In this document: positions 5,899 to 22,899 of the stretch, piece by piece
Layout of the letters: each line of letters opens with the position of its first letter
Numbering within the stretch: the stretch's first letter is position 1
Origin: Terriglobia bacterium
Lineage (GTDB): Bacteria > Acidobacteriota > Terriglobia > JAJPHL01 > JAPKYU01
Assembly: GCA_965206645.1 (NCBI GenBank)
Contig: CBDBKE010000004.1
Location: forward strand, 1,632,001 to 1,696,000
DNA length: 64,000 nucleotides
Direction: 5' to 3'
Translations under genes and position numbers: made by a program
Notes under the pieces: generated by a model
The model's input: only the letters and a program-made list of their open reading frames with translations
Database searches by the model: none
Told to the model about the DNA's origin: nothing

Positions 5899-5950
5899 AA
5901 CTGTAAAGAAACTGTCAAAAAACTGGCTCTAGACGGCCAGCACTGTAAAG
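5899..5950 (+). repeat. Putative integrase arm-type direct repeats
   Basis: AACTGTAAAG (5899), AACTGTCAAA (5910) and AACTGGC (5921) at 11-bp period, plus CACTGTAAAG (5941), just inside attL. Confidence 0.55.
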
Positions 5951-7089
5951 GAAGTCGCGCCGTGCTCGTTCGCCTGCCGGTCAAGCTTGGACAGCGCTTC
6001 CCGCATCATGTTGAGCTTCGCCTGGCTGTAACGCTTGAACACCTGCGAATCGCCTTGCCGCAGCATCTGCGTCACGAAATGATCCGCCACGCCCCCGGCG
6101 CTGAGCCGGGTCGCAAACGTGTGGCGCAACTCGTATAGCGAAAAATGCGGCAGCCCGGCGCGTTTGAGCGTCCGGTCCCACAGCTTGCGCACCGTCGTGA
6201 TGTGCGGCTTGCTGGACCCCATCCGCGGGCTCGGGAACAGGTAGTCGGAATCGCCGCTCTGCTTCATCTGCGAGGCGAACGCTTCGCGGGCTCTGTCGGT
6301 CATCGGCATGTCCGCGATACCGTTCACCGTCTTGGAATCCGGCAGATGCACGATCCCGTTCTCCAGATCGACCTGTTCCTTTCGCATCGGGATCAACTCG
6401 CGATAGGGCCGCAGCCCCATCTCCACCATGATCGCAATGATGTTACGCAAGTGCAGGGACGCGCAGGCTTCCAGCCAGGCCTGCTTCGAGGCGGTCAGAT
6501 AGTACGGCTTGCGCGTCGTACCAGCCAAGGGGACCGGAAACTCCACCCCATTACACGGATTGACCGCCAGCCGCCGCTTCTTCACCGCCACGTTCAGGAT
6601 GCGATGCAAGATGCGAAACTCCTGATGCACGGTGGCAGGTTTGAGCCTGCCGCGAAGTTGCAGCCCCAACTTGGTGTACACCCGCTTGCCTGTGTTCAAT
6701 CTGGTCATCAGATACGCTTCGATATCCTCCACTGTGATGTCCGATAGTCTGTTCTCGCCGAACCGGGGCCTGAGGAACTTCAGCGCGCCGAGGTTTTGCA
6801 GATGGGTCTGCTCGCTCCGGAAGGGTGGTTGGGAACGGTTCTCCAGGAACCAGTCCGCCCACTCGTTGAAGGTGATCCCAGCGCCCGGCGCGGCGCTCGG
6901 CAGCAGCCCCTCATCGCGAGCCACCAACCGTTTGCGCATCACCTTCTCGGCTTCGCCTTTTTCCCTCTGCCCTGTCGAGGTCTGTCTCCACCTCCCGTTC
7001 TGCTCCCGGTAGCTCATCCACCAGACGCGTGAATTGCGCCGGAGGTAGAGGCTACCAGCGGTATTTCTCGGTCTACCTGTCTTGTTCAT
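5929..7089 (-). CDS. int: Tyrosine recombinase / site-specific integrase
   Basis: GLRPYRE (R), DSKT (K), YELRHTFATRL, VFKRY (Y). GGAGG RBS precedes the ATG at 7089. Adjacent to the tRNA. Confidence 0.93.
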   Translation of the reverse strand: MNKTGRPRNTAGSLYLRRNSRVWWMSYREQNGRWRQTSTGQREKGEAEKVMRKRLVARDEGLLPSAAPGAGITFNEWADWFLENRSQPPFRSEQTHLQNLGALKFLRPRFGENRLSDITVEDIEAYLMTRLNTGKRVYTKLGLQLRGRLKPATVHQEFRILHRILNVAVKKRRLAVNPCNGVEFPVPLAGTTRKPYYLTASKQAWLEACASLHLRNIIAIMVEMGLRPYRELIPMRKEQVDLENGIVHLPDSKTVNGIADMPMTDRAREAFASQMKQSGDSDYLFPSPRMGSSKPHITTVRKLWDRTLKRAGLPHFSLYELRHTFATRLSAGGVADHFVTQMLRQGDSQVFKRYSQAKLNMMREALSKLDRQANEHGATSFTVLAV

Positions 7090-7291
7090 CGATTCCTCCA
7101 TTCACATGAAATTGCTGACGCCACTCGGCCAGCTCCGACCGTCGGAAGCGGATCGAGCGGCCCATCATGCGGTAATGGGGAATCTGCTTTCGCTCGACGT
7201 AAGCATACACCAGCGAGGGGCTGACACCCAGGAAGTGGGCGGCGGCCTTCACCGTGATCGGGGCATCTGTCGCTTCTCCGTTAAGGCTCAT
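7073..7291 (-). CDS. Excisionase-like HTH protein
   Basis: ITVKAAAHFLGVSPSLVYAYVERKQIPHYRMMGRSIRFRRSEL is an HTH_17/Xis pattern. The gene overlaps the int start. Confidence 0.88.
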   Translation of the reverse strand: MSLNGEATDAPITVKAAAHFLGVSPSLVYAYVERKQIPHYRMMGRSIRFRRSELAEWRQQFHVNGGIDEQDR

Positions 7292-7463
7292 CTTTCCCTC
7301 CCTACTCTCCATACGAAACTACAAGGGGGAACTCCGCGCGGAGAGTCCGTTGCGATTCCTCGGAGAAGACGCCGTATCGCTCGGCGATCCACGCCGGGAC
7401 TTCCAGCGTCTCGTCACCGTCCCGGTCGAAGTTCTTGAGGGTATTCACCCGTATGATTTTTCT

Positions 7464-8429
7464 TCATCCGTCATCGTGTTCCCTCCAGATCGGCTCGATA
7501 AGCCAGCGGTTTTGCGGCGCGTCGTAACCCTGGACGCGCAGCGCTTCCTCCACGAACCGCTTCCCCTCGCGGCGCGTCATGTGAATCACCATCGCAATGC
7601 CGTCCACCACGCCTCGGCATGTGACCTCCCAGGGAAGCTCACCGCCGCCCTGCATGGCGCAACTGGCGATGCGCGACAAGGCCGACTCGGCGTTGTTGGC
7701 GTGTACGGTGGTGAGCGAGCCGCCGTGTCCGGTGTTGAGGGCTTGTAGCAGGTCCGCCGCCTCCCCGCCGCGCACCTCGCCGACTACGATGTGATCCGGG
7801 CGGTGACGGAGCGCGTGGCGGACGAGATCACGGATCGTCACCGCTCCTTCCTGTAATCCGCGAGCCTCGAAGCGGACGCAATTCGAGCGCTCAATGCGAA
7901 GCTCCAGGGTGTCCTCGATGGCGACGATGCGCTCGTCGTCGGGAAGCAATTCAATAAGTGCGTTAAGCAGGGTGGTCTTGCCCGATCCGGTGCCGCCTGA
8001 AACCAGGATGTTGCGGCGCGAGCGCAACACCCGCTCCGCTTCCGCTCGCACCTCTTCTAGGAGTGCGCCTTGCTTCACGAGATCATCCGCCGAGAACGCC
8101 CGCTTGCCAAAGCGCCGCATGGTGATCGCCACCGTGGGGCTCGCGGGCGGAACACAGATCGCCACCCGCGAGCCGTCGTCCAGGCGCGCATCGACAATCG
8201 GCGAGCTCGCCGGATCCAAGCCCAAAGGCCGGGCGATGTGGATGGCCGCCCGCAACAGGGCCGATTCGTCCAGGTCCGGCGCGTCATGTGCCGTCAACCG
8301 CCCGGCCCGCTCGACCCAGACATTGCCGGGGCCGTTAATCATGATCTCGCTGACTTCGGAATCTTCCAGGGCGCTTTCCAATCCCGGTAGAAATGGTTTC
8401 AGGTGTTCCAGTCCACTCGCGGCGCTCAT
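7464..8429 (-). CDS. VirB11/TrbB/CpaF-family traffic ATPase
   Basis: Walker A GGTGSGKT, AIEDTLEL, LRHRPDHIVVGEVRG, NTGHGGSLTTVHAN. The start overlaps the T4CP stop (ATGA). Confidence 0.93.
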   Translation of the reverse strand: MSAASGLEHLKPFLPGLESALEDSEVSEIMINGPGNVWVERAGRLTAHDAPDLDESALLRAAIHIARPLGLDPASSPIVDARLDDGSRVAICVPPASPTVAITMRRFGKRAFSADDLVKQGALLEEVRAEAERVLRSRRNILVSGGTGSGKTTLLNALIELLPDDERIVAIEDTLELRIERSNCVRFEARGLQEGAVTIRDLVRHALRHRPDHIVVGEVRGGEAADLLQALNTGHGGSLTTVHANNAESALSRIASCAMQGGGELPWEVTCRGVVDGIAMVIHMTRREGKRFVEEALRVQGYDAPQNRWLIEPIWREHDDG

Positions 8430-10555
8430 AATTGACCCGCCGCTTTCGCTCTCCAATAGGAGTGTTCTAGGGGCAGATAATGAGGTTTGAGATAGACCCG
8501 TCGCGGCTCAAGCGACTGCGACCCGTCATAGGGCAGACAGATCGCTTGACAGTTTCCCAGCAAGGTGAAGTCTCGCGGGTGAAACACGGCCTCCCGGCGC
8601 TCCTGGAATGACTTGGTAGCGCCGATGCTTCCGCCTCCTCCCCCGGCGCGGCCTGACAGCGGGGAGACTTCCGCCCTCTTGGAGGTCTCGCTGATCGTGT
8701 AAGAACCTTTGATCTTCGCCACCTGCCCGCACATTTCGCTTGCAATCTTGGCGCTGGCGTCGTCGCTGAGAGACAGGAAAATCCGGGTGCGGAGCGTCTG
8801 CAACAGCGAGCGCCATGCTTCCGAGCTTCCCAACACAGAGCGTAGCGAGGAAATGGATTGAGTGGCGACAATCGGGATGCAGCGGCATTGCCGGGTCAGC
8901 GCAAAGGATTTTTCATCGCCCGATGGATCGTCCTCGCCCACCGAAGCGAAGGCTTGATATTCGTCACAGATAAAGACGGCAGGCCGGAAATAGACCCCCG
9001 GCGACTCCTTCATCTTGGTCGGACGCATGAGAAGCGCCTGTAGCCAGGCGTTCTTGAGCATCACGCCCACGGCGCGGGCCAGCGCCGGGTTCGATCCGGC
9101 GGGCATGTTCAAGGCCAGCACCTTGCCCCTTTCGATCAATTCATAGAGCGGGGACAGGTGTCGCGGCCCGGCGATTCGTTCCTCTTCAACGGAAGGAATC
9201 GACTTGGGCGCGGGTTTGTCTCCTTCCCCGCCGTCCGGCTTCTTGTTCAGCTCCTGGGCTCCCCGCGCCGCCCGCATAGCTACCCTGGCTTGAACTGCAA
9301 TGGCTTGCGGATCGTCGGGGACTTCCGGCGGACCCGGGCAAAACACCTTCGCCACATCCGGCATGTCGAACATGGCAAGGAATACCGAAACCCCCTCCAC
9401 AATCGAGGACTTGATTTTGTTATCCAGCGTTTGCCAGTCGTTGACAAACCAGCGCTTCACCGCCTCAACTCGTTCTCTCACTTCGTCTCCGGGTCCGGGG
9501 TCCCAAACCACCCGGTAGGTCAGCTTGAGCTCGTCCAGTTTTTTGAGCATAGGGCGGGAGTAGGCGGCCCGCACTTCTTCCGTTCCCGGTATGTCTTTCC
9601 ATAGCCATTCAGCCAAGGTCATGATGTGGGCTTGGTATACGACCTCCGGAATGAAAACCGTGCCTCTGTTCAACTCGTCGCTCCACGCTTCGGCTTGCTC
9701 GATCTTGGCTGCGAAAAGGTCCGGGTCGATGGCGCAGCGGTAGACCTGCTGCAACGTCACCCACCGTTCCGGGAATATCCGGTGAAGCTCGATGATCCAG
9801 CGGACCAGATTGGTATAGGCTTGCTGCCAGAAGGGTTCCTTGCCCTTGCCGAATAGCTGGTTGAGAAGGCTGGAAACGGTGTAGGCCAGCGAGTAGGAAT
9901 CGAGCCACCAGGCCGAGAGCGGGTTCCATTGCCAGCGCCCATTCATGCCCAGCTCGATGTAGTCTTTTCCCCGGCCCGCCTCGATCAGGATTCGCCGGAT
10001 ATCGTGACAGAAATCTCCCTTGACTTCGAGCATGAGCGCTGCCGCCCGCTTCTGTGGATTCTCGGCTTGCCAGCCGAGAAGCTGCTTGGCGAAAGGGTGC
10101 ATGCAAGCCGAGGTCTTCCCGGACCCGACGGCTCCAAAAATCGCCACGCCGGTATACAGCCCCCGCTCCGGGATGGTGAGCCAGGAAGGATTGAAAATCT
10201 CCCGCGCTTCGACCGGGTGATGTACCTCCCCGATCACGATGGCCGGGGCCGTTTGCCGGGTTGAAAGCGGCCAGGTCGGGAGCGCCCCAAAGGGCGCAAA
10301 ATCCCGCCGCCGCGATTCCAGCCAGACCTTCCAGACGGACATGAGAATGAGGCCCGCGAGCATGACGGCGACGAAAGGCGAAGCGTAGTACCAGAGCATC
10401 ACCCAGCCGTAGAAGTTCGGGGTGTGGTAGTCCATGAGATCGAGCAAGGGACTGTCCCCTAGCATGGGGAAGGGACGGCGGACAAAGCTCCACAGGGCGT
10501 ACCCCAGACCGCCGAAAAACAGAAGGATGTGAGGAATGAAGCGCCGCCATTTCAT
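8426..10555 (-). CDS. Type IV coupling protein (TraG/TraD/VirD4-like)
   Basis: Two N-terminal TM segments, Walker A GAVGSGKT, EVKGD, FWQQA, Walker B FICDEYQ, ATQSISSL. Start placed at MKWRRF (10555). Confidence 0.87.
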   Translation of the reverse strand: MKWRRFIPHILLFFGGLGYALWSFVRRPFPMLGDSPLLDLMDYHTPNFYGWVMLWYYASPFVAVMLAGLILMSVWKVWLESRRRDFAPFGALPTWPLSTRQTAPAIVIGEVHHPVEAREIFNPSWLTIPERGLYTGVAIFGAVGSGKTSACMHPFAKQLLGWQAENPQKRAAALMLEVKGDFCHDIRRILIEAGRGKDYIELGMNGRWQWNPLSAWWLDSYSLAYTVSSLLNQLFGKGKEPFWQQAYTNLVRWIIELHRIFPERWVTLQQVYRCAIDPDLFAAKIEQAEAWSDELNRGTVFIPEVVYQAHIMTLAEWLWKDIPGTEEVRAAYSRPMLKKLDELKLTYRVVWDPGPGDEVRERVEAVKRWFVNDWQTLDNKIKSSIVEGVSVFLAMFDMPDVAKVFCPGPPEVPDDPQAIAVQARVAMRAARGAQELNKKPDGGEGDKPAPKSIPSVEEERIAGPRHLSPLYELIERGKVLALNMPAGSNPALARAVGVMLKNAWLQALLMRPTKMKESPGVYFRPAVFICDEYQAFASVGEDDPSGDEKSFALTRQCRCIPIVATQSISSLRSVLGSSEAWRSLLQTLRTRIFLSLSDDASAKIASEMCGQVAKIKGSYTISETSKRAEVSPLSGRAGGGGGSIGATKSFQERREAVFHPRDFTLLGNCQAICLPYDGSQSLEPRRVYLKPHYLPLEHSYWRAKAAGQL

Positions 10556-10936
10556 AGAGTCCGTTTCCCTTCTTTCATCGCCCCGGCTGGGGGCGCTCTT
10601 CCGAGCCTTCCCGCAGGGATAAATGAGGACGATAGCGACCCTCATGGGGGGGCAGGAACGGTGTGCCGCAACGCACCGCTGCTGGGGCCACATGACCCCC
10701 CACTTTTCGGGGGGGTCGCTATCGTCCTCCCCGATTTTGCTGCATCGGCGCGGGTGAGTCCGATGTGTAAGGGATAACCGCAACGGAATGAGAGAGATGA
10801 GAGAATGTGGTTTTGCCGCATCTCTTGGCTGAATCTTGCCGTACCCTCCCTCTGTGACTGCGGCATCCTGGATCGGGCGTTGCGGCATGAAAAAACCCTT
10901 CAATTTCCTCTCTCCGTTCCGGCCTTCGGGCTGCTT
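10556..10936. promoter_or_regulatory. Structured intergenic region, candidate oriT / regulatory site
   Basis: Perfect 17-bp inverted repeat (10625-10641 / 10713-10729) with nested hairpins, four TGCGGCA copies, and the only large gap in the transfer region. Confidence 0.5.
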
Positions 10937-11881
10937 TCATCCGGTTTCCTCCAGGACCGCAAACCGGGTGGCCCGCCACGTTCCGTAGTCGTCAATCGAG
11001 ACCCCTTCCGTCAGCTTCGCTTCGGGGAGACGTTGAAGCTCCGCCGACCGTCTTCCGGCTGCCGCGAATCCCCCATACTGCGCCAGAAATTCCCGGTCCT
11101 TGTGAGTCATCGCCTCGTCAATCGCCTTGATTTCCTGCCGCACCGTCCACCCTTCCCCGGTCTCCTTCGGGGCGGTCGCGGCCCACACCCGGAGCACCCG
11201 CGCCGTCCGATCCACGGTTTCATTCTCCGCTGCGATCCCGATCACCCGGACCTGCCGCCCCTTCTTGCGGAGCGCATCCCAAAGCGGCCCATGCGCGGCT
11301 CCCCAGGAGTGCAACTCCCGATCCGTTTGGTGGCCCGGATCGACGTAGGCGAAGGTGACGGTTTCCGGGTCCGCCGCAATAGGAAGTTTGAGCGCAAAGT
11401 AGCGTTTCTGCGCTCCCACTGCCCCGTAATAAATCCGTCGCGGGATCAGCCGCCGCGATAGGCCGAGCTTTTCAAAGAACGCAACCTTCTCCGGCTCGGC
11501 GGGGAGCCAGTTCATGCCCGGATGTTCCAGAACGAAATCCAGCGATAGGAGCCGCCGCATCACCACCGGCGGGCAGGCTTTGCGACGGTGGCGGATGTTC
11601 TCGACCCCCAGCGCCCGGTAGATCGGCTTGCTCGATATCCGGCACGGCCTCGCCCCCCCGGAGAACATCAAGTTTTCATTCTCTACCGCTGCCCGCCGTA
11701 CAACCAACGCTTGGACGAAGCGGTGCGCCCGCTTGCTCTCCGCATCAAAGTAGAAACAGAACTGCGGGCGCGTGAAGACGCCGCTGTGAAGGCACACCAG
11801 CGCGATCCACTCCGCTTCCCGGCCCGTCCAACCGAATTGTTCCAGTGCTGTTTCCCGCCCCCGCAAGTGCTCGATCATCAT
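10937..11881 (-). CDS. ICE protein of unknown function with wHTH-like N-terminus
   Basis: 314-aa ORF coupled to virB8. N-terminal GWTGREAEWIALVCLHSGVFTRPQF looks like a winged helix. No assignable family. Confidence 0.7.
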   Translation of the reverse strand: MMIEHLRGRETALEQFGWTGREAEWIALVCLHSGVFTRPQFCFYFDAESKRAHRFVQALVVRRAAVENENLMFSGGARPCRISSKPIYRALGVENIRHRRKACPPVVMRRLLSLDFVLEHPGMNWLPAEPEKVAFFEKLGLSRRLIPRRIYYGAVGAQKRYFALKLPIAADPETVTFAYVDPGHQTDRELHSWGAAHGPLWDALRKKGRQVRVIGIAAENETVDRTARVLRVWAATAPKETGEGWTVRQEIKAIDEAMTHKDREFLAQYGGFAAAGRRSAELQRLPEAKLTEGVSIDDYGTWRATRFAVLEETG

Positions 11882-12555
11882 TGCTTCCCGGTAACGATTG
11901 CCCGGTCGCCTTGCAGATAGCTGATAACGATCCCCATAGGGTTGTGGACGATCAGGTCCGGCGGGATCGTATCGAGGAACTGGAATTGCAGCGAGAGGGT
12001 CCAGCGTTCCCGGCTCACTTCGTTTGCCATCACCATCCGCACCAGGTCAAAATCTGCCGTCGCGCTGTGCGGCTCCTGGGGATTGGCCTGAATCCTCAAA
12101 ACGACGCGATCCACTTGCAGTTCATCCTTGGCCGCTCCCGCCGCGAGAAGAGCGATATTCTGACTCTCGGCCCGAAACGAGGCGTTGGCGAGTTCGGTGG
12201 TCAGGAAGCGCAGACTGCGGGACCAGTTCTCTTGGACCGTGGCCTTCCGGCGCGAGTAGAAGTCATAAATAAAGCGGTTGAGAAAGTATTTGGTGGTGGG
12301 GTCCAGCGGGTCCGCCTGGGCCTCCATCGCCTCGTAGGCGATGGCCTCGGCCCGGCCTACTTCATCCACCCTCACGACGATGGGGCGGGGCGGATCAACC
12401 GACACAATGCGAATGACGACGATGATGAGCAAGAGCAAGCCGATTCCCAACCCGACGGAGAGCACCCGTAGATGACGGTTGGAGTGGATGGCTTCGCCCC
12501 ATATTTCGGCGTACTCGGCTCCGGCGTCTTTGACGCTGGTTTCGGTGTCCTTCAT
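11878..12555 (-). CDS. VirB8/TrbF-family protein
   Basis: Single TM, PIVVRVDEVG, KYFLNRF and C-terminal HNPMGIVI (NPxG motif). Confidence 0.88.
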   Translation of the reverse strand: MKDTETSVKDAGAEYAEIWGEAIHSNRHLRVLSVGLGIGLLLLIIVVIRIVSVDPPRPIVVRVDEVGRAEAIAYEAMEAQADPLDPTTKYFLNRFIYDFYSRRKATVQENWSRSLRFLTTELANASFRAESQNIALLAAGAAKDELQVDRVVLRIQANPQEPHSATADFDLVRMVMANEVSRERWTLSLQFQFLDTIPPDLIVHNPMGIVISYLQGDRAIVTGKQ

Positions 12556-13550
12556 TTGATCCCTCCCGCGCCCGCCTTGGCCGCCGCCGCGCCTCCGGTG
12601 GCCGCAACCGTTCCCGCCGTGGTTGCCATTCCCATGAGGCCGCTGCCCGCCGCTCCTGTGCTGGTGACGAGCATCGAGGCGAGCTCCCCGCACTTGAGGC
12701 TTGCCAGCATCCCGGCGACGAACAAGGGCACGACGGCGATCATCCACAAGCCCACGTCTATGAAGCTCTGCATGTCCAGGTTGGCATTCCCCAAGCTCGT
12801 GATGTAGGAGATTCCGACAGCGGAGAAGACCCGGAGCACCGCTCCGGCGATCACGGCATAAAGCGAGTAGGTAATCATCGCCCGGAACCATCCCCAGAAC
12901 AGAAACGACAGCGGCTCGAACACCAGAAACGGAATGAAGATCGGCCCCAAGATGATGAGGATGGCAAGCGCGATTTGAGCCCAGATCACTTGAGCGTAGG
13001 TGACGGCGGCCAACAGAAGCAGCATAAGGACCACAAACACAAACATTGCAAACCCCGCAACCGCCGTTATTGCGGCATGGATCCCGCCGGTGAGTAGGCC
13101 GAGCGTGTTCCCCGCTTGCGCCTGGGCCGCCTGGTTCGCCGCGAGGGAGCGAATGAGGTTCCCAAGCTCGGTCTGCATCGAATAGACGGCATCGCCGATC
13201 AGCAGTTCGTGAAGCCAATTTCCACCCGCCGCAATCATCCCTGGGAAGGTGAAAGCCATTCCCGGAATGGTGGTGGTGTAGAACTGCAACATCACCCACG
13301 GTATCCACAACCCAATGACGACCCGAATCAGTTCCCACGGCTGAATGTTCCCGCTAAAGGCGATCTTCAGCCCGTTCAACACCACAACGATGAGCGCCAG
13401 ACCCCCGAAGAGCGCGTTTCCGGTGGTGAAAACCTCCCCGCCCGCCGCCGCGGTCAGTCCATCCAGAGCGACATCGAGGAACGATTTGAAGTCCCTCAGT
13501 TGTTCCGGGGAAAGGTTGGCCGGGATGTTGGGATCGAGTTGGATTTGCAT
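12552..13550 (-). CDS. VirB6/TrbL-family inner membrane protein
   Basis: Polytopic, LGPIFIPFLVFEPLSFLFWGW, Ala/Gly-rich tail. Confidence 0.88.
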   Translation of the reverse strand: MQIQLDPNIPANLSPEQLRDFKSFLDVALDGLTAAAGGEVFTTGNALFGGLALIVVVLNGLKIAFSGNIQPWELIRVVIGLWIPWVMLQFYTTTIPGMAFTFPGMIAAGGNWLHELLIGDAVYSMQTELGNLIRSLAANQAAQAQAGNTLGLLTGGIHAAITAVAGFAMFVFVVLMLLLLAAVTYAQVIWAQIALAILIILGPIFIPFLVFEPLSFLFWGWFRAMITYSLYAVIAGAVLRVFSAVGISYITSLGNANLDMQSFIDVGLWMIAVVPLFVAGMLASLKCGELASMLVTSTGAAGSGLMGMATTAGTVAATGGAAAAKAGAGGIK

Positions 13551-14480: not shown

Positions 14481-15830
14481 TCAGTCTCCTTTTGTGGGCC
14501 GGGGCACCAGCACGTCGGAAGTGAACCAGACGCGAAGCCGGTGCCCGGCGCGTATTGTGATGGTGGGTAAACGATTCAAGAAACGCTGCAAGATTTGGGT
14601 GGCGCTTTGTCCGAGTCCCTGCCCGGCACCGGCCCGGAAGCCCGCCCCGCCGCTCTCGTAAGGGTTGCCGCCTTGCGCCGTGAGTCCGGCCAGGATGCCG
14701 ACCGCCCCGACAGCGGCGAACATGGAAAAGTAGTGTCGGTTGACTTGATCTTTCAAGGCTCCCTCGCCGAGTTGATTCAACCCATGAAATTCGAGCGACA
14801 CCCAACGCCCGTCCGGGTAGATCAAGCGGTGGAAACTCACGGCGAGTCGGGCTTGGTCCTGATTGGATACGGCCTGAGCCGTACCAATGACCCGCGTACC
14901 ACGCGGCACCAAGATGCGCTGCCGGTCTGCCGAGTAAAAAGGCACCGAAACCACGGCTAGGACCGGGCCGGGAAAGTCACCGGAAAGCTGCGTGACCAGG
15001 GCCGCTTCCAAAAACGAGCCTTCATAGATGCGCTCCCAACCGGGGGGGGCTTCCGGCCCCCTGACCCGGGCCGGAGAAGAGTAATCCCGCGCCGGTGCGG
15101 GCCCAGCCGCCGCCGTAGGAACGGCGGGCGTGGACGCAGCGGTTGGTGTCCCTCTGAGTGCTTCGATAAACGCTCGGTCCGCCTGGGCCTCCGCCGCCAC
15201 TTCATCTTGGAGGCCGGTCGTGACCGTCCCAATCGTGTCGAGGGCCTGTTCGAGCGCCGCCGCCCCTTCCGCTCTCATGGCATCGACCGGGCTTGCGGTT
15301 TCGTCCCCCTGCCCCTCGGACGACGCCCCCTCCCTGCCGTCCAGTTGCCGGTAGGTCTGTGCGACCGGCGAACTGCGAAGCGACCGGCTGCGCCGCTCGA
15401 GGGCTTCCAGCCGCAAGCGTTCCCGGAGTTCCCATTCTTCCTCGGTATAGGGTTGCCCGGTGTCGGGACTTGTCCCGGCCAGCGCCTTCGCTTGATCGGC
15501 GGTTACGCGGCCCGCGCCTACTCCGCCGCTGTTGCCTTGCTGCCGTTGCTGCCGCGCTCGCAATTCACGCTCCGCCGCTTGTCGGCGCGTCTCCGCTCGA
15601 AGCGACTCTGCTTCCACTTGCGCGGCCATCTGATCGGCGAAGCTCCGGGGCGCGGTCTGCTCTGCGCCCGGATCGGGCGAAAGCTCCGCTTCCTTGCCGC
15701 CTCCGAAATAAATCCAGTACGTCAGGAACACGAGAACGAGAATGGTGATGATCCCGACGCCCCATTGAGTGACGATGCCGCCCGGCAGCGATCCCGCCGG
15801 TTTGGGATAGAGCCGCCGCCAGCCGATCAC
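14481..15830 (-). CDS. VirB10/TrbI
   Basis: GSFLEAALVTQLSGDFPGPV, ILVPRGTRVIG, DQVNRHY, PTITIRAGHR. GTG start overlaps the virB9 stop. Confidence 0.92.
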   Translation of the reverse strand: MIGWRRLYPKPAGSLPGGIVTQWGVGIITILVLVFLTYWIYFGGGKEAELSPDPGAEQTAPRSFADQMAAQVEAESLRAETRRQAAERELRARQQRQQGNSGGVGAGRVTADQAKALAGTSPDTGQPYTEEEWELRERLRLEALERRSRSLRSSPVAQTYRQLDGREGASSEGQGDETASPVDAMRAEGAAALEQALDTIGTVTTGLQDEVAAEAQADRAFIEALRGTPTAASTPAVPTAAAGPAPARDYSSPARVRGPEAPPGWERIYEGSFLEAALVTQLSGDFPGPVLAVVSVPFYSADRQRILVPRGTRVIGTAQAVSNQDQARLAVSFHRLIYPDGRWVSLEFHGLNQLGEGALKDQVNRHYFSMFAAVGAVGILAGLTAQGGNPYESGGAGFRAGAGQGLGQSATQILQRFLNRLPTITIRAGHRLRVWFTSDVLVPRPTKGD

Positions 15831-16669
15831 GGCCCGATCTCCGGCGCCGTGAAGCGCCATCGGACTTTTTGTTTGCCGATCTGCAACCAGCCGTCACCCA
15901 AAACGTGACGGGCGATATACAGCCCGTCCTCGCCCAGATCGTAGGCCACCAGCGCCGGTTTCCCGTCCTTCTCTTCATACAGTGCGGGCGACTCCTGGGG
16001 GTTGGCGCGAAGGTAGGTAAACCGCCCGTCGTGCCACATCCCTTCGACCAGAAACGGCCATTTCTTCGCCTTGTCCTCCAATCGGTAGGGGAACTTGAGG
16101 CGCGTGGGATACTCCGCCCGGAACGCCTCGGTTTCCCGCGCCGCAAGCGCCGTAACGTCGGCGATGCGGGAATCCGCGTCAACTTGCGCATCCTTGGCCG
16201 TCTCGATGGCTGTTTTCGCCATCTGCTGATAGGCCGCAACCTGGGAGCGAGCGACAAAGGCCGGTTCGTGCCCGGCCGGTGAAATGCGCGGGTCGGCGTC
16301 CGCCTGGGCCTCGATGCGAACCACTAGATGCGGCTGGCCCGCACTTTGCTCGGTGACGAGGAACGAGTAAATGCGACCGGAGGCGCAAACCAGCGCGACG
16401 TTGGTAGTCACGCCCTCGGCGATGGGTTTGAGGAAGGCCAGATTAGCGGCCCCGGTCAGGTGCCAGTACTCGGAATCTCCCACGACAAAATCCAGCACGT
16501 TTTCCGTCGCGGGAAGCACGATGACGGTGGTGTGCCGGGTCTTGGCCCGAATCTGGATGATTTGATCCTGGGTCTCGATGACGCGGAGGACCTGCCCGCC
16601 GTCCTGAGCGATCAGCGGCAACGACAGGGCAAGCAGCGCCGCCATCACGAGTGGAATGATCTTCAACAT
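15827..16669 (-). CDS. VirB9/TrbG
   Basis: Signal peptide, TTVIVLP, GDSEYW, NLAFLKP, TTNV, WHDGRFTY, PALY. Confidence 0.9.
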   Translation of the reverse strand: MLKIIPLVMAALLALSLPLIAQDGGQVLRVIETQDQIIQIRAKTRHTTVIVLPATENVLDFVVGDSEYWHLTGAANLAFLKPIAEGVTTNVALVCASGRIYSFLVTEQSAGQPHLVVRIEAQADADPRISPAGHEPAFVARSQVAAYQQMAKTAIETAKDAQVDADSRIADVTALAARETEAFRAEYPTRLKFPYRLEDKAKKWPFLVEGMWHDGRFTYLRANPQESPALYEEKDGKPALVAYDLGEDGLYIARHVLGDGWLQIGKQKVRWRFTAPEIGP

Positions 16670-16675: not shown

Positions 16676-19099
16676 CTACCTCCTGGACAGGTGTTCAATG
16701 GCCTCGGTGAGGCCATACTGTTTGACTGCTTCCGCCCGCTTCTGAGCATCGATCGGCGACGAGGTATAGAGCCAATAGCTGGCCGGATCGACTTCGAGGC
16801 GCAAGATGCCCGCCGCGTCGGTGCGCCGTAGATAAAGCTCCCGTTTGGGGATCAAGCCGCGAATGGTGTTCATTTCCGAAGGGTTCAGCCGGAAGGTGTC
16901 TGCGGCTTTCTCCGGCAAGTCGGGGTTGGCAAGGAATAGCTTGGTCGGCATGGATTCGAGCAACGCTTCCGCCCCTGCAGTTCCGGTTACGTCCACGGCG
17001 CTCTGCGTGGCGACGACGAGCGCCGCGTTCTTCTTGCGCCAGGTCTTGGCGGCTTCGGCCAGGTAGCCGAGAATGGCCGGGTCTTTCAGGTAGCGCCACG
17101 CTTCATCGACCACCATGAGTTTTACCCTTGCGGCCTCATCCGGGTTCTCCAAAGCTAGCCGCAACCGTTCGAGAAGGTAGAACAGCGCTGCTTCGCAGAG
17201 GTCTTCGTGCTCCGCCGCGCCCGCCATGTCGATCACCTGCCAGTCCTGGAAGTTGAGATCGTCTCCGTCTGCCGGGTTGTCAAAGTACCTGGCCCACGCG
17301 CCGGCTCCGTGCCAACGCCCCAAAGCGGGCCACATCTTTGCGGGAAGAGAACGGACCAGCACCCCAAGGGTCCGCCGCTGGGGTGCAAAGGCATAGAGGT
17401 CTTCGACGCGGGCGCGGATCTCGCTGGGGTCTTCGCCGCTGAGTTTCCACCCGCCGATCCTCAACAGACGCGATATCCAGCCGGTGAGGAACTGGAAGCT
17501 CCGCTCCCCGACCGGGAGCGAGAAGGGGCGCAACCGGAAACCGGCGCTCCCGCTCCCGTCGGGGGATAGCTCCATATAGCCGCCCCCGAGAAACTGCGTG
17601 AGCCAGCGATAGGAGCCGCCTAGATCAAGAATGAGAACACGCGGATCGTATTGGAGCGCCTGAACCAGCAGGAAATTGAGCAAGAAACTTTTACCCGCGC
17701 CGGTGGCGCCGAGAACCAGCGTGTGCCCCACGTCGCCCTGAAACAAATCGTAGTGATAAGGGGTGCGCCATCGCGTTTCGAGGATCGCCAGCGCCGGCTT
17801 CCGCAAGTGGCCGCTCCGGGGTGTCCCCACCGGCGGCCCGAAGATCGGGGCCATCGAAGCGACCGCGCCCGCCGATACAAACACGGATCGGACCTGCCGC
17901 CGTCGCGGTTGCGCGGGCATCCGCGAGAACCAGGCCGGAAGCTGCCCGTAACCCTCCCGGATTACCTTGGCGTCGTGGCTGGCAAAGATGCGCCGAATAT
18001 CTCCGTCCAGGCCCTCGGTCTCCGATAGCGGGCCGTGGATCGCCACGGTCAGGGCAAGGTCGCCGTAGGCGATACCGTCCGTCTCCAACTCGACCAGGGC
18101 ATCGCCCAGCCGGTCGGATTCCGCCGCCGCTGCCGTGTCCACCATCGCCGACGTCGTCCCTTCGGTTTCCTGAACGTGCGCGGACATCGAGTAGCGCTTC
18201 GAGAAGTAATGCCGCTGCGCCCCACGGATTTTGCGCCGGGCGGCATCGAGGCGCTGCGGCCGCCATTCGAGCGTGACGGTCATGGTTGCATCGAGCCGGT
18301 AAAGACCCTGTAGAAGATTGGCGCGAGCTGCAGCGGGAGGCGAAAGCAGCGAGTAGAGAATGACGGGTTCCCCGTCCAGGCGCAGATTGCGCCGCTCCGC
18401 TTCGAGCTCGGAAACGGCCAGCCGCCAATTCATGCCGCTGCCCCTCGCGCCGTCCCAAAAGGTTCCAGGCCGGTTCGTGAGTTCATTCAAGACGAGAGAC
18501 GCATCCCGCGCTTCGAGCATCCGCACCGGCGTAAGGTCGTCGACCAGCGCCCGGCTCGCCTCGACCAGCTGCCGAAAGCCCGCCGCCGCCGATTCGATAG
18601 AGGAATGGAGGTAAACGGATTCATGCCGGTTCCGCCTCCGGGCCATCCAGTTCTTGGCATAGGCCATCCACCACGGCCCGCCCGTCCTCTCGGTGGTGAC
18701 GGCGGACAGGTGCGGATCGTGAACCCATGCGACGTAGGCGCTCACGTCCTGCACTCGATCCGCGAGGAACGACCGGCGCTTGCGCCGTCCGAGCGCAGCC
18801 ACGCTCGACGCCGCGCCGTCGGACTCGTCTGCAAAGTGGATCGGGCGGCGCAATAGATAGAAGTAAAGCCGCGTCCGGGAATCGAGCCCCGACAACATCC
18901 GCTGCCAGCGGTCGATCACCCGATCCAGTTGTTCGGGGGTCTGGCCGTCCAGGACGCTGGGCGTCATCCGCCCGATGCTCATAAGTTCTCCCGCCCGCGT
19001 CAGGCACGTTCGCCCATCTTCCAGCCAGCCCCACCAGGGCAGTTCCTCGGCCAGCGATCCCGCCGCTTCGTAGTCCAGGAGTTCGTCGTTCACGTTCAT
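16676..19099 (-). CDS. VirB4/TrbE ATPase
   Basis: DVGHTLVLGATGAGKS (Walker A), DLGGSY, MVVDEAW (Walker B), RKKNAALVVATQS. Confidence 0.94.
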   Translation of the reverse strand: MNVNDELLDYEAAGSLAEELPWWGWLEDGRTCLTRAGELMSIGRMTPSVLDGQTPEQLDRVIDRWQRMLSGLDSRTRLYFYLLRRPIHFADESDGAASSVAALGRRKRRSFLADRVQDVSAYVAWVHDPHLSAVTTERTGGPWWMAYAKNWMARRRNRHESVYLHSSIESAAAGFRQLVEASRALVDDLTPVRMLEARDASLVLNELTNRPGTFWDGARGSGMNWRLAVSELEAERRNLRLDGEPVILYSLLSPPAAARANLLQGLYRLDATMTVTLEWRPQRLDAARRKIRGAQRHYFSKRYSMSAHVQETEGTTSAMVDTAAAAESDRLGDALVELETDGIAYGDLALTVAIHGPLSETEGLDGDIRRIFASHDAKVIREGYGQLPAWFSRMPAQPRRRQVRSVFVSAGAVASMAPIFGPPVGTPRSGHLRKPALAILETRWRTPYHYDLFQGDVGHTLVLGATGAGKSFLLNFLLVQALQYDPRVLILDLGGSYRWLTQFLGGGYMELSPDGSGSAGFRLRPFSLPVGERSFQFLTGWISRLLRIGGWKLSGEDPSEIRARVEDLYAFAPQRRTLGVLVRSLPAKMWPALGRWHGAGAWARYFDNPADGDDLNFQDWQVIDMAGAAEHEDLCEAALFYLLERLRLALENPDEAARVKLMVVDEAWRYLKDPAILGYLAEAAKTWRKKNAALVVATQSAVDVTGTAGAEALLESMPTKLFLANPDLPEKAADTFRLNPSEMNTIRGLIPKRELYLRRTDAAGILRLEVDPASYWLYTSSPIDAQKRAEAVKQYGLTEAIEHLSRR

Positions 19100-19102: not shown

Positions 19103-19399
19103 CTATCTCCGAATCAGGATCGTCCAGGGAGCCGCCGCCCATTTGCCGGGATCGTAGCGGACCCGGAACTTGGCCGAGGCTCGCAGGATTTCGAGCATGT
19201 TGGGGTCTTGTTTCCAGGCCCAAAATCCCACGCCGTAGAGCACCCCGAAAATGACTCCCCCGGTCACAATGGAGTTGATGGCGTTCCACATGGCAAGGCC
19301 CAACGTCGCGCTCAGAAGAAACCAGCGCCGTTCCACGCCCATGATCGTTAGGGGTTTACTGAGCGCCGGGTAGCCGCGCCACGTCTTGCCGCGCTCCAT
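19103..19399 (-). CDS. VirB3/TrbD
   Basis: LSKPLTIMGVER, two TM segments, KQDP, located between the pilin and virB4. Confidence 0.88.
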   Translation of the reverse strand: MERGKTWRGYPALSKPLTIMGVERRWFLLSATLGLAMWNAINSIVTGGVIFGVLYGVGFWAWKQDPNMLEILRASAKFRVRYDPGKWAAAPWTILIRR

Positions 19400-19692
19400 C
19401 AGAAGAGCCACGCCAGAAAGTTGGCCGCGCCCATGGCCATGCCAAGACCGAAGACGATCCCGGCCAGGGCCTTTTTGCTGCCGCCTTCACCAAAGGCGAA
19501 CATGAGTCCGCCCACCACGATGGCAATCAAGCTCAGTCCTCGCGCAATGGGTCCGGTGAACGCCGCCTGCAGCACGTCTATGGCTTGCAGCCAGGGGCTC
19601 GTTCCCTGCGCCATGAGTTCTCCCGCCGATAGTGCAAGGATGCTCACCAGCAGCGCTCCTCGCTTCCAGGTGATTAAGTTGTTGGTGTTCAT
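19399..19692 (-). CDS. VirB2/TrbC pilin
   Basis: MAQGTSPW...AFTGPIARGLSLIAIVVGGLMFAFGE is a TrbC pattern. Confidence 0.9.
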   Translation of the reverse strand: MNTNNLITWKRGALLVSILALSAGELMAQGTSPWLQAIDVLQAAFTGPIARGLSLIAIVVGGLMFAFGEGGSKKALAGIVFGLGMAMGAANFLAWLF

Positions 19693-19724: not shown

Positions 19725-20048
19725 TCAGGCTCCGGGAAACTGCCCCCGGTCCTCTTGTTCCAGTTTCTCGGCAAGCTCGGTTTGCCCGCCCTCGCCGCGC
19801 CGGATGGACCGCTCCATCAGATCGACCTTGCGGCCCATGTCGGCCAGCCCCAAGGCGCGGGCGGCGGAGTAGATCACGACCATAAGCGTCACCACGGCCA
19901 GCCCGCCATGCCACGCGACGGGTAGCCAGTAGTCGGTTGCGATGATTCCTAAGTACGGCTTGAGATAAGCGAAGCTCTCGCCGGCGAGCATCAAGGCCAC
20001 GGCCAGGATGATGGCCGTCAGTCCAATGCTGATCTTCCACGGTTGCAT
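19725..20048 (-). CDS. Small membrane protein of unknown function
   Basis: Two hydrophobic helices and a charged C-terminal helix, with an RBS, co-directional in the operon. Confidence 0.7.
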   Translation of the reverse strand: MQPWKISIGLTAIILAVALMLAGESFAYLKPYLGIIATDYWLPVAWHGGLAVVTLMVVIYSAARALGLADMGRKVDLMERSIRRGEGGQTELAEKLEQEDRGQFPGA

Positions 20049-20058: not shown

Positions 20059-20964
20059 TCAGAGTTCGATGGAGCCCTTGTCTCGTCTGCCGCCGCTTCC
20101 TCCTCCGCCTCCGGTGCTGTGGTCCTGGCCGAGCGCCCGCGCCACTCGTGCCGCCGCCCGCCCATTGCTTCCATGCACGGCGAATCCAGCGGCGGCTTTT
20201 GCGCCGATACTCTTGGCGCTGTAGTGCTCGGTCGCAATCTCCACGTTCACGCGCCCGCTGCGGCCATCGATGTCGCTGTACTCAAGCTGAGCGTCCGGGT
20301 ACTCCACCCGTCCATCCTTGACGGGGAGCCCCAGCGCCTCCGCCGCCTGGAACCGTGCAGCGTCCGCCGCCTCCTTTCCGCCTCGCGCTCTCGCGCTTTC
20401 CGTGGCGCGGGCGATCTCGCGCTTGAGTTCGGCGTCAATGCGGACCCGCTTGAGGACGGCTCCTTGTTCGAGCAACCGCACTTGCTCAATCCTTGCGGCT
20501 CGAAACACGGCCACGTCATGTTGAAGCTCTCCGGGCTTCACGAGCCCGCTCCATGCCTTCTGCTCTTTGTCGAGTCCTTGTTCGCGGGCTACCCGCTCGG
20601 CCCGCTCTACTCCGCGCTCGGTGAGCGTGAGCACCTTGTAGGCGCCGCCTTGCGGCCCCTCGGCGCTGTGCTCCCGGACGTGCCCGGCACGAATCATGCG
20701 ATCCACAGCCCGACGCGCCGCGTAAGGGTGTCCATCGAAGTGAGCTTCGGCCATATCACGGTAGGCGACACTCCGATACATCCCCACGTCGGCCACCGCC
20801 CGATCTGCCCGCTCCTGGAAGTTCTGGCGCTCGGTGCAGGGATCGTATTCGCGCCGGTGGCCGTCGCGCTCCCGCTGTTCCCGCTCTTTGGTGTGGTCGC
20901 GCCTGGGGCGAGCTCCGGGCGTCCGGGTTCGGGGATCGCTGGCTAGGTCTCGCGGATCGAACAC
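20059..20964 (-). CDS. Putative relaxase of the PD-(D/E)XK class (MOBC / replication-relaxation-like)
   Basis: wHTH-like N-half, LQHD, and YPDAQLEY...VNVEIATEHY nuclease-like motif. No HUH relaxase occurs elsewhere in the ICE. Confidence 0.6.
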   Translation of the reverse strand: MFDPRDLASDPRTRTPGARPRRDHTKEREQRERDGHRREYDPCTERQNFQERADRAVADVGMYRSVAYRDMAEAHFDGHPYAARRAVDRMIRAGHVREHSAEGPQGGAYKVLTLTERGVERAERVAREQGLDKEQKAWSGLVKPGELQHDVAVFRAARIEQVRLLEQGAVLKRVRIDAELKREIARATESARARGGKEAADAARFQAAEALGLPVKDGRVEYPDAQLEYSDIDGRSGRVNVEIATEHYSAKSIGAKAAAGFAVHGSNGRAAARVARALGQDHSTGGGGGSGGRRDKGSIEL

Positions 20965-20973
20965 GACGGCTCC

Positions 20974-22059
20974 TTACCGGCTCAACCCAGCCTCGCGTTG
21001 GAGCCTCTGCGCGTGTTGTTCCGTGGATTGCTTCGGCGTCTGGCTGATCTGAGGCCCGCGAGCATGAGAATATTGGTGGCTCAACTCCGCCGCCGTCTTC
21101 TCCTTCACCGGGGCTTCGCGCTCGTGCTCGACCGCACGGTCCATGAGGTAATTGGTCATCTGTTGCGCGTCCCGCGCCGCTCTATGAATCTCGTGCGGGT
21201 CTTTTTCCAGGACCGCAACCCAATTCTCGACATAGGCCGCGCCGCGCTGCGGGTCATGCCCCACGCCCACGCGCTCCCCCGTCATCATGGCGCTGATCTC
21301 GGCCCGCAATTCCTCGCGGGCGTACTCAGGCGATCCAAAGCCCTTGTCCAGTCCTTCTTTGAGCGTGTCGCGGTTCATGCGGTCCGGGTGGCCGGTCGAG
21401 TGACCGCATTCGTGAAGCGCCGTTTGGTAGTAGCCGTTGCGCGTGGGGAATTGGGACGGCTCCGGGAGCACCACCTTGTCCTCGGCGATCCGATAGTAGG
21501 CCCGATCTCCGGCGACGTGCTCGACCCTCGGCCCGCTGGCCTCAATCACCTTCTCCGCATCGCGGTGAGCGTCCCATTCGGGCCGCGCTTGCGCCGGTCG
21601 CGGTTTCAACTCCAATCCGTCGACTTGCTCGACGTTGAACACCGTGTACTGTTTACAGATGGGATGGGAACGCTGCTCTTCTTCGTAGATCGTCTTGCCG
21701 TCCTTGTCTTTCAGCGTCTTGCCCTGCTCGTCCTTTGCGGTTCGTGCCGTCCGATCCGTGAAAAACAAGACCTGCGTCCCTTTCTCACCTTTGCGAACCT
21801 GCCCGCCCGCCGCTTGGATCTGGCCGTACGTTCCCCAACGGTTGTCTCCCCGGCCATCGCGGATACCCCTGCTCATCAGGTAGAGACTGTTGCCGCCCGT
21901 GTAGGATTTGCCGGTCGAGAAGTTTTCCGGGCTGCTCTGCTCCCCCGGCTTCCACGGCTTCTGCCACGGTGCAACTCCCGCCTTGATTTGTTCGATGAGT
22001 TCTCCGCTGACTTTCTCCGCGTAGTCTTCCCCGCGCTGCCAAAAGGATTTTTTAGCCAT
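20974..22059 (-). CDS. ardC: ArdC-family ssDNA-binding antirestriction protein (DUF1738 plus zincin-like domain)
   Basis: PWQKPW, GKSYTGGN, RWGTYGQIQAAGGQVRKGEKG, YTVFNVEQ, LHECGHSTGH, YAREELRAE. Confidence 0.9.
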   Translation of the reverse strand: MAKKSFWQRGEDYAEKVSGELIEQIKAGVAPWQKPWKPGEQSSPENFSTGKSYTGGNSLYLMSRGIRDGRGDNRWGTYGQIQAAGGQVRKGEKGTQVLFFTDRTARTAKDEQGKTLKDKDGKTIYEEEQRSHPICKQYTVFNVEQVDGLELKPRPAQARPEWDAHRDAEKVIEASGPRVEHVAGDRAYYRIAEDKVVLPEPSQFPTRNGYYQTALHECGHSTGHPDRMNRDTLKEGLDKGFGSPEYAREELRAEISAMMTGERVGVGHDPQRGAAYVENWVAVLEKDPHEIHRAARDAQQMTNYLMDRAVEHEREAPVKEKTAAELSHQYSHARGPQISQTPKQSTEQHAQRLQREAGLSR

Positions 22060-22076
22060 GCCCCGCCTCCATTTCT

Positions 22077-22268
22077 TTAGTCGTGCCGATCGCGCCGCGC
22101 CGCGTTGATCTCTTCCACGGTGCCCACGTCCTCGACCATCAAACCGATCTGCTCTCCGAGTTCCCACGTCAGTTCAACCGCGAGCCCACGGTTCAACGCC
22201 TCGTGAAATTCAGCCTCGGTTTCGACCGATAGGTATTTCTCGCCGTATTCTTCCTTCTCTTGCATCAT
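22077..22268 (-). CDS. Small acidic hypothetical protein
   Basis: 63-aa ORF MMQEKEEYGEK... whose start overlaps the upstream stop. Confidence 0.6.
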   Translation of the reverse strand: MMQEKEEYGEKYLSVETEAEFHEALNRGLAVELTWELGEQIGLMVEDVGTVEEINAARRDRHD

Positions 22269-22705
22269 CGTTTCTCCCTCTCCGGATCGATCTTCTTTAC
22301 ACCCACACGCCCACACAGGATGCAAACGGGTTGGATGGCGGTTTGGCGCCGCTGAAACCGGGGCCGACCCTGGAATACCTCCGCCAATGGCGTGCTCATT
22401 CCCGTTTCCGTCCATGGCTCCCCGACCTTGTCCGATCGACCCCTGCCGGCGGAAGTGTGATCTGTCACGCGCCCGAGGCGGCACCGTTCCCGGTATTCCC
22501 GCTGGCGTTGGCAATGGTCCTCGCGAACCTCCGGGTCCCGCTGGTAGCGGCGGTTGGCGCGCCGCCTCTGTTCGCGTCTCATCCGGCCTCGGCACCGATC
22601 CCCGCAGTAGACCTGCCCCCGATAGCAGCTCCTGCAGATGTAAAACATCACCCCGCAACCCGACCCTCGACAAAACAACTGTCGAAACACCACCTCTTGG
22701 GCCAT
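22265..22705 (-). CDS. Cys-rich (Zn-finger) and Arg-rich protein, first gene of the ICE operon
   Basis: Cx4C...CxxC-x6-CxxxC, then RMRREQRRRANRRYQR, and a C-terminal CxxC. GAGGGG RBS. Confidence 0.75.
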   Translation of the reverse strand: MAQEVVFRQLFCRGSGCGVMFYICRSCYRGQVYCGDRCRGRMRREQRRRANRRYQRDPEVREDHCQRQREYRERCRLGRVTDHTSAGRGRSDKVGEPWTETGMSTPLAEVFQGRPRFQRRQTAIQPVCILCGRVGVKKIDPEREKR

Positions 22706-22790
22706 CGCACCCCTCACGGGTGTGAATAACGGCCATCTGTCGTGGCACTCTGACCTTGCTGTAGCCGTGCCCTTTGACCAGGGCCGCCAT

Positions 22791-22819
22791 AAAAAAACCC
22801 GATCGCTCTAACGATCGGG
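22791..22819 (-). terminator. Intrinsic terminator-like hairpin upstream of the ICE operon
   Basis: CCCGATCG/CGATCGGG 8-bp stem with a 6-nt loop, followed by T7 on the minus strand. Confidence 0.65.
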
Positions 22820-22899
22820 GGTTTCCCTTTATCCGCGCCGCTCTACCTCACTAAAGACTCCGCTTCGGCGATGATGACGAACTTTAAACCGGCGAGGGT

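Follow-up and report, generated by a model that had tools for sequence, protein, structure and literature searches.

Integrative and conjugative elements (ICEs) of the Tn4371 and ICEMlSym types carry HUH relaxases of the mobilisation (MOB) classes MOBP or MOBQ. An origin of transfer (oriT) usually has an inverted repeat with an invariant flank behind it, and the oriT of pAD1 is an intergenic sequence with a large inverted repeat, located beside the genes of the relaxase and of a TraG-like protein. PF13814 (Replic_Relax) has been described as the MOBC relaxase family (PMC5357655). In TraX of pAD1, a winged helix at the N-terminus is combined with an active site like that of restriction endonucleases; the protein binds repeats located 70-120 bp from nic and is reported to show no covalent adduct (PMC12857230). 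As for the Acidobacteriota, a mating-pair formation (MPF) system of type MPF_T from this phylum occupies a basal position in the VirB4 tree, according to PMC3548315. This report is focused on a window of 64,000 nucleotides from a soil-dwelling Terriglobia bacterium of the Acidobacteriota (assembly GCA_965206645.1, contig CBDBKE010000004.1, positions 1,632,001 to 1,696,000). Between 22717 and 5929 of this window, whose own numbering is used throughout, the minus strand encodes a VirB-like type IV secretion system (T4SS), a type IV coupling protein (T4CP) and an integrase. We consider it probable that this region is the backbone of a family of ICEs without a canonical relaxase, present in Acidobacteriota and Gemmatimonadota, which uses two winged-helix proteins (here unk314 and unk301) at a structured site.

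The backbone comprises 18 tightly packed genes, all of them on the minus strand and running toward a tRNA-Pro(GGG) gene, and all 18 open reading frames (ORFs) of the window copy are open. Eight VirB components with Pfam support (B2, B3, B4, B6, B8, B9, B10 and B11) are found in this single run. Of the elements by which an ICE is recognised, an integrase with flanking direct repeats and a VirB4-containing T4SS with a T4CP (Pfam, NCBIfam) are present, and for the relaxase and the oriT there are candidates, proposed from remote homology and context. The components that characterise MPF_T systems are present as well (Pfam or NCBIfam profiles of VirB3, VirB6, VirB8, VirB9, VirB10 and VirB11, in addition to VirB4). 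An earlier description made from the letters of the window (hereafter the sequence-only reading) had given this gene content and order, all on one strand and ending at tRNA-Pro, and Pfam scans and ARAGORN bear it out; its count of about 17 genes has to be raised to 18. It had also recognised no HUH relaxase, VirB1 or repressor and, in agreement with that, no relaxase, VirB1 or repressor family matches any of the 18 genes. VirB7 was not found in the backbone by profile scans either.

The canonical relaxase families PF03432, PF08751, PF07514, PF01076, PF02486, PF13814 and PF03389 were searched in the whole source genome (4.4 Mb, 97.9% complete). The first six returned nothing at E<=0.001, and PF03389 gave two sub-threshold matches only, both remote from every copy of the element. 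In terms of MOB classes, the Pfam families of MOBF, MOBP, MOBQ, MOBV, MOBH and MOBT have no match in the element and none over its cut-off in the genome; no relaxase family matches the stretch 22890-42599, upstream of the backbone, either. Since five T4SS elements coexist in this genome with no canonical relaxase, the result argues that the family supplies its own unrecognised relaxase.

The candidate oriT is a structured site of 138 nt (10599-10736, minus strand) inside the gap that separates the genes of unk314 and the T4CP (10556-10936). This gap, which the sequence-only reading had pointed out, is real and consists of 380 non-coding bases. The site contains a perfect 17-bp inverted repeat (10625-10641 and 10713-10729), whose arms are 71 nt apart and enclose two inner hairpins, and it is followed by the near-invariant ATT.ATCCCTGCGGGAAGGCT (the near-invariant block measures 17 nt). 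The invariant ATCCCTGC seems similar to the nick core of RP4 and Ti-type origins (ATCCTG|C), a resemblance that we take as a lead and not as evidence. Relatives of unk314 occupy 310 loci in species-representative genomes, and the locus counts given here rest on the best 79 distinct ones of these, each with ±10 kb of surroundings. In 78 of the 79 loci (all except L008), a covariance model detects the site directly behind unk314 and on the strand of the gene, and no Rfam family matches it. The closing stem keeps 16 pairs in 16 aligned loci, with double compensatory changes at two positions. Taking 86 best model hits, one per locus, and dropping the loci with divergent arms, 53 have both arms matching the pattern; the variable dinucleotide of the stem is complementary in all 53, and occurs in six different variants. 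When this dinucleotide is compared with the residues of unk314, ignoring kinship, the top columns lie in generally variable regions of the protein and the comparison is not informative.

A different function has to be considered, because the 5' leader of the T4CP gene contains the site, which could be regulatory: it might control T4CP-VirB11-xis-int as a single-strand promoter or, in the form of RNA, as a leader or attenuator. In favour of this, the coding strand carries the site after a stop codon and before the ribosome-binding site (RBS) and ATG of the T4CP gene, and the G-U pairs at some stem positions favour the sense strand. However, the site stays with unk314 in seven loci that contain neither unk301 nor any full-length T4SS gene within ±10 kb, the T4CP gene included, four of which keep a T4CP-like stretch of 51-103 aa. 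Furthermore, lone sites exist in the source genome, where 13 sites are found versus 7 full-length unk314 genes; each of the two DNA strands folds better than shuffled controls do (z -3.9 and -4.3), Rfam offers no match, and the inverted repeat with its invariant flank reproduces the usual oriT layout. A purely regulatory role is, on this evidence, unlikely. The sites of the source genome that have no adjoining unk314 gene (C4:459207, C3:899724, C4:2215567 and C2:471788) may be oriT-only hitchers or remnants.

With the site interpreted as an oriT, unk314 (P0002; 10937-11881, minus strand) is the protein most tightly tied to it and, by context, a candidate oriT-specific initiator or relaxase. 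The sequence-only reading had listed this ORF as an unknown after VirB8, next to the gap, but overlooked the candidacy of the two, which by context are the best candidates for relaxase and oriT. The protein consists of a winged-helix N-terminus and a C-terminal domain of no known family, and it has no match in Pfam, NCBIfam, PHROG or PDB. The winged helices of unk314 and unk301 are homologous (E 7.2e-6), and that of unk314 is also its only part with a weak similarity to PF13814 (E 2e-4 to 9e-4, probability 22-46%). In a set of 56 diverse members, Y88, D115, E129, K132 and H197 reach a conservation of 90% or more. In the ESM Atlas the neighbours of unk314 are unnamed acidobacterial clusters, and the nearest named one, DUF5697 (0.87), is probably there by chance.

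The genomic context adds to this picture. Three natural ArdC-unk314 fusions (P0261, P0271 and P0302, of 610-721 aa) carry ArdcN and MPTase-PolyVal at the N-terminus. The segment of unk314 (10701-11700) is the most variable of the conjugation module, with 81-82% identity in three copies of the same genome versus 90-98% around it. In the seven loci without unk301, the profiles of unk301 and Replic_Relax find nothing at E<=0.01 (hmmsearch), and the neighbours include a P4-type integrase (L061), a RepA_C gene (L027) and a helix-turn-helix (HTH)-peptidase_M78 regulator with insertion sequence (IS) elements (L044); there, unk314 and the site have the look of a minimal mobilisation module.

The second winged-helix protein, unk301 (P0001; 20059-20964, minus strand), is the nuclease-like ORF of the sequence-only reading and a candidate MOBC-like nuclease. 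A Replic_Relax-type winged helix precedes an alpha/beta domain in this protein, and its family conserves H149-D150, P223-D224, E242 and K256. When its profile was compared with that of 21 genuine PF13814 proteins of the same phylum, the match reached a probability of 90.5% and E 1.4e-6 (0.13 for the core alignment in the reversed control), with its PD..E..K in register with the PD..E.D.GTE..K of Replic_Relax. Residues 140-285 have three Replic_Relax clusters (0.84, 0.83 and 0.83) as their nearest named neighbours in the ESM Atlas, values below the 0.9 mark that make them a lead only. The C-terminal DKGSIEL of unk301 (window 20059-20080), placed after a variable Gly-rich linker, is invariant or nearly so in the 39 homologues, and may be a tail for secretion or for recognition by the coupling protein.

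Several results weigh against the roles proposed for these proteins. Against PF13814, unk301 scores 13.2 bits, below the cut-off of 25.3, and that family is detected at E<=1 in 6 of 39 close homologues (best 0.0046) and in none of 10 divergent ones. In the profile match, significance is limited to the winged helix (E 1.2e-6); the nuclease-like domain by itself gives E 0.048 versus 0.1 in the reversed control, and the D of the Replic_Relax E.D motif is Ala in unk301. The AlphaFold2 models of both proteins were built from shallow alignments. That of unk301 has a predicted local distance difference test (pLDDT) score of 58.6 and is good only for residues 150-280, and Foldseek against PDB returned for it winged-helix regulators only, all with E above 0.03. 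The C-terminal domain of unk314 has no significant match (E 0.06), its model has a pLDDT of 46, and no catalytic motif can be named in it. PDB sequence searches gave nothing meaningful for either protein, nor do PHROGs or NCBIfam match the backbone proteins that lack a named family. For the non-HUH relaxase put forward in the sequence-only reading there is a candidate in unk301, which we read as a putative, remote MOBC-like protein, with significance in the winged-helix half only.

Related to this, unk301 alone could be the relaxase, as a divergent MOBC enzyme, and unk314 just an accessory oriT binder or a regulator. Indeed, unk301 is the sole protein linked to a known relaxase family, with H, PD, E and K in register, and in one weak alignment unk314 lacks the PD and E positions. 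Nevertheless, the seven loci mentioned above maintain unk314 and the site without unk301, the source genome has 7 full-length unk314 genes versus 5 unk301 genes, and unk301 is encoded about 9 kb away from the structured site, always paired with ArdC and not with the site. We hold this explanation to be doubtful, while giving it some weight.

The preferred explanation involves both proteins, in a relaxosome that is probably non-canonical, two-protein, and either MOBC-related or new. According to it, Xis and Int would excise the island between the 45-nt repeats that are observed at its ends, and DNA processing would begin at the structured site of the ~380-nt gap between unk314 and the T4CP gene, the putative oriT. 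The two paralogous winged-helix proteins would form the relaxosome: unk314 as an oriT-specific initiator by context, possibly the nickase, and unk301 possibly supplying the nuclease, as a remote relative of the PD-(D/E)XK relaxases of the MOBC/Replic_Relax type. ArdC, a binder of single-stranded DNA and a protease, would act with them at the site, where nicking is predicted near the invariant block, and the coupling protein would pass the strand to the VirB-like T4SS. A bolder version of this proposal states that unk314 founds a new MOB class (winged helix plus an unrecognised catalytic domain) and acts at an oriT in the form of a three-way junction, together with a MOBC-derived partner, unk301, and that this pair of proteins is the transfer initiator of most conjugative and mobilisable elements of soil Acidobacteriota and Gemmatimonadota; this we offer tentatively, as a possibility that falls short of probable. 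If it is true, current tools score such elements as relaxase-less T4SS.

The limits of the integrated element are given by its attachment sites. The tRNA-Pro(GGG) gene detected by ARAGORN (5767-5843, plus strand) contributes its 3' 45 nt (5799-5843), from the anticodon loop to the 3' end, as the attL core repeat, and a 45-nt direct repeat of this part, identical in 44 of 45 positions, constitutes attR (42600-42644, plus strand). The 23-nt core of the repeat has 2 matches in the window versus 0.00 expected (100 shuffles), and no third att copy is present in the window. Because the tRNA repeat stands at both ends, the integrated island is 5799-42644, of 36.8 kb, instead of the 5929-22830 proposed in the sequence-only reading; the compact, minimal ICE of that reading holds for the backbone and not for the island. 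The 16.9-kb gene run is the conserved backbone, and the rest of the island is IS-ridden; what is common to the other copies of the element is only its part from 5.8 to 22.3 kb. Among genomes of the same genus, a contig of G402 matches the window with 96% identity between 43916 and 42600, where the homology breaks off exactly and gives way to unrelated sequence, and the homology of G401 continues down to 42305. Both carry the attR side only, the tRNA-Pro(GGG) of the sister species G403 is occupied by a related element, and in no relative among the genomes compared were both flanks of an empty site found on one contig.

An element of this kind might no longer transfer itself, being a decaying or domesticated T4SS island, or one that relies on a relaxase provided in trans. 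The island contains some 20 kb of IS debris, the genome is IS-ridden, with many truncated copies and frameshifted VirB4, VirB2, VirB10 or T4CP genes in some copies, and the window copy itself may be inactive. No excision joint across the att sites was found in contigs of public runs, which are assembled from short reads and break inside the element and at 5813, hence the joint would not be visible in them. Pieces of the element are present in metatranscriptome libraries, in which DNA carry-over is possible, so that they do not attest its expression, and the summed depth of the public runs, pooled from many organisms, is far higher on the backbone than on the flank. In spite of this, the 18 ORFs of the window copy are open, no canonical relaxase exists anywhere in the genome that could act in trans, and both the identity of the backbone across two phyla and the reshuffling of its modules, described below, speak for movement. 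We regard a loss of self-transfer as very unlikely, and the region continues to be read as the backbone of an ICE family. In two of the public runs (X4 and X12), contigs join 22906 to 9811 with 23 other letters between them, and therefore relatives in those communities are arranged differently.

The family is large and extends beyond one phylum. The protein collection searched contains over 1,078 homologues of unk301 and over 3,118 of unk314, none of them with a name or a Pfam domain; unk314 counts 1,933 clusters at 50% identity. VirB4, T4CP, unk314 and unk301 occur together within ±10 kb in 30 of the 79 loci, most of the others being cut short or partial. The 79 loci belong to Acidobacteriota (Acidiferrales, Bryobacterales, Terriglobia and Vicinamibacterales) and Gemmatimonadota (Longimicrobiales and Palauibacter), apart from four that come from bins of other phyla (Dehalococcoidia, Chloroflexi and Gammaproteobacteria). 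In the Gemmatimonadota type, ArdC-unk301 follows VirB11, which is a circular permutation with the same order on the circle. Backbone proteins are 46-96% identical across the two phyla, VirB11 reaching 71-96% in all but two loci, and this points to a recent horizontal spread. The sequence-only reading had suggested an uncharacterised ICE family with the same synteny across Acidobacteriota: this interpretation is supported, since the synteny recurs there and in Gemmatimonadota and no standard MOB relaxase was found in the element or the genome, and the full-text literature yielded no published description of the family (supplementary files may hold element lists). Judging from sequence comparison, the family would consist of ICEs with plasmid-like relatives, endowed with a deep-branching VirB/MPF_T-like T4SS, a coupling protein and ArdC. 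Several members (L014, L023, L026, L029, L034 and L043) are located on contigs of 32-90 kb labelled 'chromosome_N', which may be circular plasmids or excised forms.

The source genome contains five near-complete copies of the element and at least eight fragments, several of them beside tRNA genes. The T4SS genes of its own copies are 90-98% identical, and in three of the four other copies the integrase regions are about 56% identical. On the other hand, the element at the same tRNA in the sister species G403 (L110) has int-xis 89-93% identical to the window and a T4SS 64-82% identical. The integration (int-xis) and conjugation modules thus appear mosaic, reshuffled between sister species and source genome. 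The four other copies show no exact att repeat of at least 16 nt within 45 kb, for which rearrangements are the likely reason. Two copies stand back to back around one tRNA-Val(cac) (C4:484-517 kb), and partial copies are placed likewise at a tRNA-Val(tac) (C4:2046-2051 kb). This arrangement is not given by site-specific integration alone, which suggests inversions by recombination between copies. A copy with a 92%-identical integrase lies at a tRNA-Ala(ggc) predicted by ARAGORN (C4:1014836-1014911). This tRNA gene belongs to a stretch that aligns with the tRNA-Pro(GGG) region at 92% identity, and could represent either an anticodon variant or a hybrid formed on integration.

The backbone genes are described here in the order of the run. 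A terminator-like hairpin with a T-run (22798-22819, minus strand) is situated just upstream and would shield the genes from upstream transcription. The first ORF encodes a Cys-rich, Zn-finger-like protein of 150 aa (22265-22717) with no Pfam or PHROG match, and the second a small acidic protein of 63 aa (22077-22268) that is kept in other copies and has no family match. An ORF of 237 aa (22077-22790) was considered as a single gene instead and rejected, given that only its last 67 residues are conserved and the Zn-finger ORF lies in another frame. ArdC follows (20974-22059; ArdcN 2.3e-33, MPTase-PolyVal 3.8e-37), with an N-domain binding single-stranded DNA, a zincin metallopeptidase domain and a likely start at the ATG in 22059, where RBS and ATG are read. 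Downstream of unk301, a small membrane ORF (19725-20048, 107 aa) shows two hydrophobic helices and a weak holin-like match below the cut-off. The T4SS genes begin with the precursor of a VirB2/TrbC pilin (19399-19692, 97 aa, TrbC 1.6e-14), whose start is a predicted one, and continue with VirB3 (19103-19411, 8.7e-08), the VirB4 ATPase (16676-19099; TIGR00929 4.1e-73, below the cut-off of that model), VirB9/CagX (15827-16669, CagX 1.1e-26) and VirB10/TrbI (14481-15860, TrbI 1.2e-40).

The next ORF, unk304 (13563-14477), is conserved in synteny and has a signal-peptide-like N-terminus and a helical body. The sequence-only reading named it VirB5, an assignment that stands by position only, without a match in the Pfam, NCBIfam and PHROG scans, so it is kept here as a putative VirB5. 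VirB6/TrbL (12552-13550, TrbL 8.2e-17) is followed by the VirB8 ORF (11878-13338, VirB8 5.9e-14), the domain of which occupies residues 272-476; because its 5' part overlaps VirB6 in another frame, the true start is probably near 12.6 kb. Beyond unk314 and the gap, the T4CP (8426-10555) matches TraG-D_C and TrwB_AAD_bind; its ORF extends formally to 10903, and the start is likely to be MKWRRF at 10555, where the conserved protein begins. The run is completed by a VirB11-type ATPase (7464-8456, T2SSE 5.4e-49), an excisionase-like HTH_17/AlpA protein, Xis (7073-7312, 79 aa, HTH_17 3.5e-14), and the tyrosine integrase, Int (5929-7101, 390 aa, Phage_integrase 1.2e-18). With a single gene run of this kind, it is plausible that excision is co-induced with transfer.

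The distal part of the island (22890-42599) is dominated by multi-copy IS elements, with at least six transposase ORFs in family scans, and also contains methyltransferases, HlyD/OEP fragments, an aldo-keto reductase, an NTP-transferase and a molybdopterin oxidoreductase. This part (22.9-42.6 kb) may represent either cargo or what is left of another island. Between IS copies it contains a truncated second tyrosine recombinase of 201 aa (27505-28110, Phage_integrase 9.7e-19), possibly left by another element that had integrated at the same site. The genome as a whole is extremely rich in repeats, such as a 1.28-kb IS of the rve family, in at least 35 copies at more than 99.6% identity, and a 1.23-kb IS that occurs some 15 times. 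Three short repeats (207-325 nt), with roughly 50-90 copies each and some subfamilies at about 77% and 70% identity, may be miniature inverted-repeat transposable elements or IS ends. Repeats were noted in the window at 24484-24808, 28130-28346, 29415-29621, 32808-34087, 37638-38866 and 26712-27515.

Acidobacteriota and Gemmatimonadota are among the dominant soil phyla, and in them DNA exchange is almost unstudied. Surveys with CONJscan or MOBscan require a known relaxase, and this family would be scored in them as incomplete or 'MOBless'. Parts defined as here would let surveys of the soil mobilome count such elements. These parts (unk314, unk301 and the 138-nt site with its covarying stem) are testable, and bear on whether a further non-HUH start of conjugation exists.

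Compared with the described systems, the element resembles the tRNA-integrated MPF_T ICEs of proteobacteria, with a tyrosine integrase at the 3' end of a tRNA gene, a VirB/Trb T4SS, a T4CP and cargo before the far att site, and differs from the Tn4371 and ICEMlSym types in that it has no HUH relaxase. The likeness to the MOBC systems (pAD1 TraX and CloDF13 MobC) consists of a protein of about 300 aa with a winged helix and then an alpha/beta domain with PD..E..K, of the pairing with a VirD4-type coupling protein and of the non-HUH character of the enzymes (PMC12857230, PMC5357655, PMC3424549). However, neither unk301 nor unk314 reaches the Pfam cut-off and only the winged helix is significantly similar; the E.D motif reads E.A in unk301; there are two paralogues instead of one enzyme; and the MOBC systems belong to Bacillota or enterobacterial plasmids, whereas the proteins studied here occur in Acidobacteriota and Gemmatimonadota, together with a VirB-like T4SS.

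In PLSDB (72,556 plasmids), tblastn found no match to unk301 or unk314. VirB4 matched 987 records, in each of which the best place is less than 60% identical (23-30% among the 12 matches listed), and the best-scoring one is pACIX903 of Granulicella tundricola (NC_015058.1), classified in PLSDB as conjugative, MPF_T and MOBF, with 28.6% identity over 72% of the length. This plasmid belongs to the same phylum and shares the order VirB3-VirB4-VirB9-VirB10, several unnamed genes and VirB8-VirB11, with ArdC nearby. It ends, unlike the window family, with a T4CP and a MobF relaxase of 1027 aa; the window family has no MobF, integrates at tRNA genes and has VirB8 separated from T4CP by unk314 and the structured site. 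As pACIX903 shares the MPF order, this order is typical of the phylum, and the succession VirB3-4-9-10-x-6-8, taken as unusual in the sequence-only reading, is not unusual there. The novelty of the family resides in its DNA-processing module, not in the order of its MPF genes.

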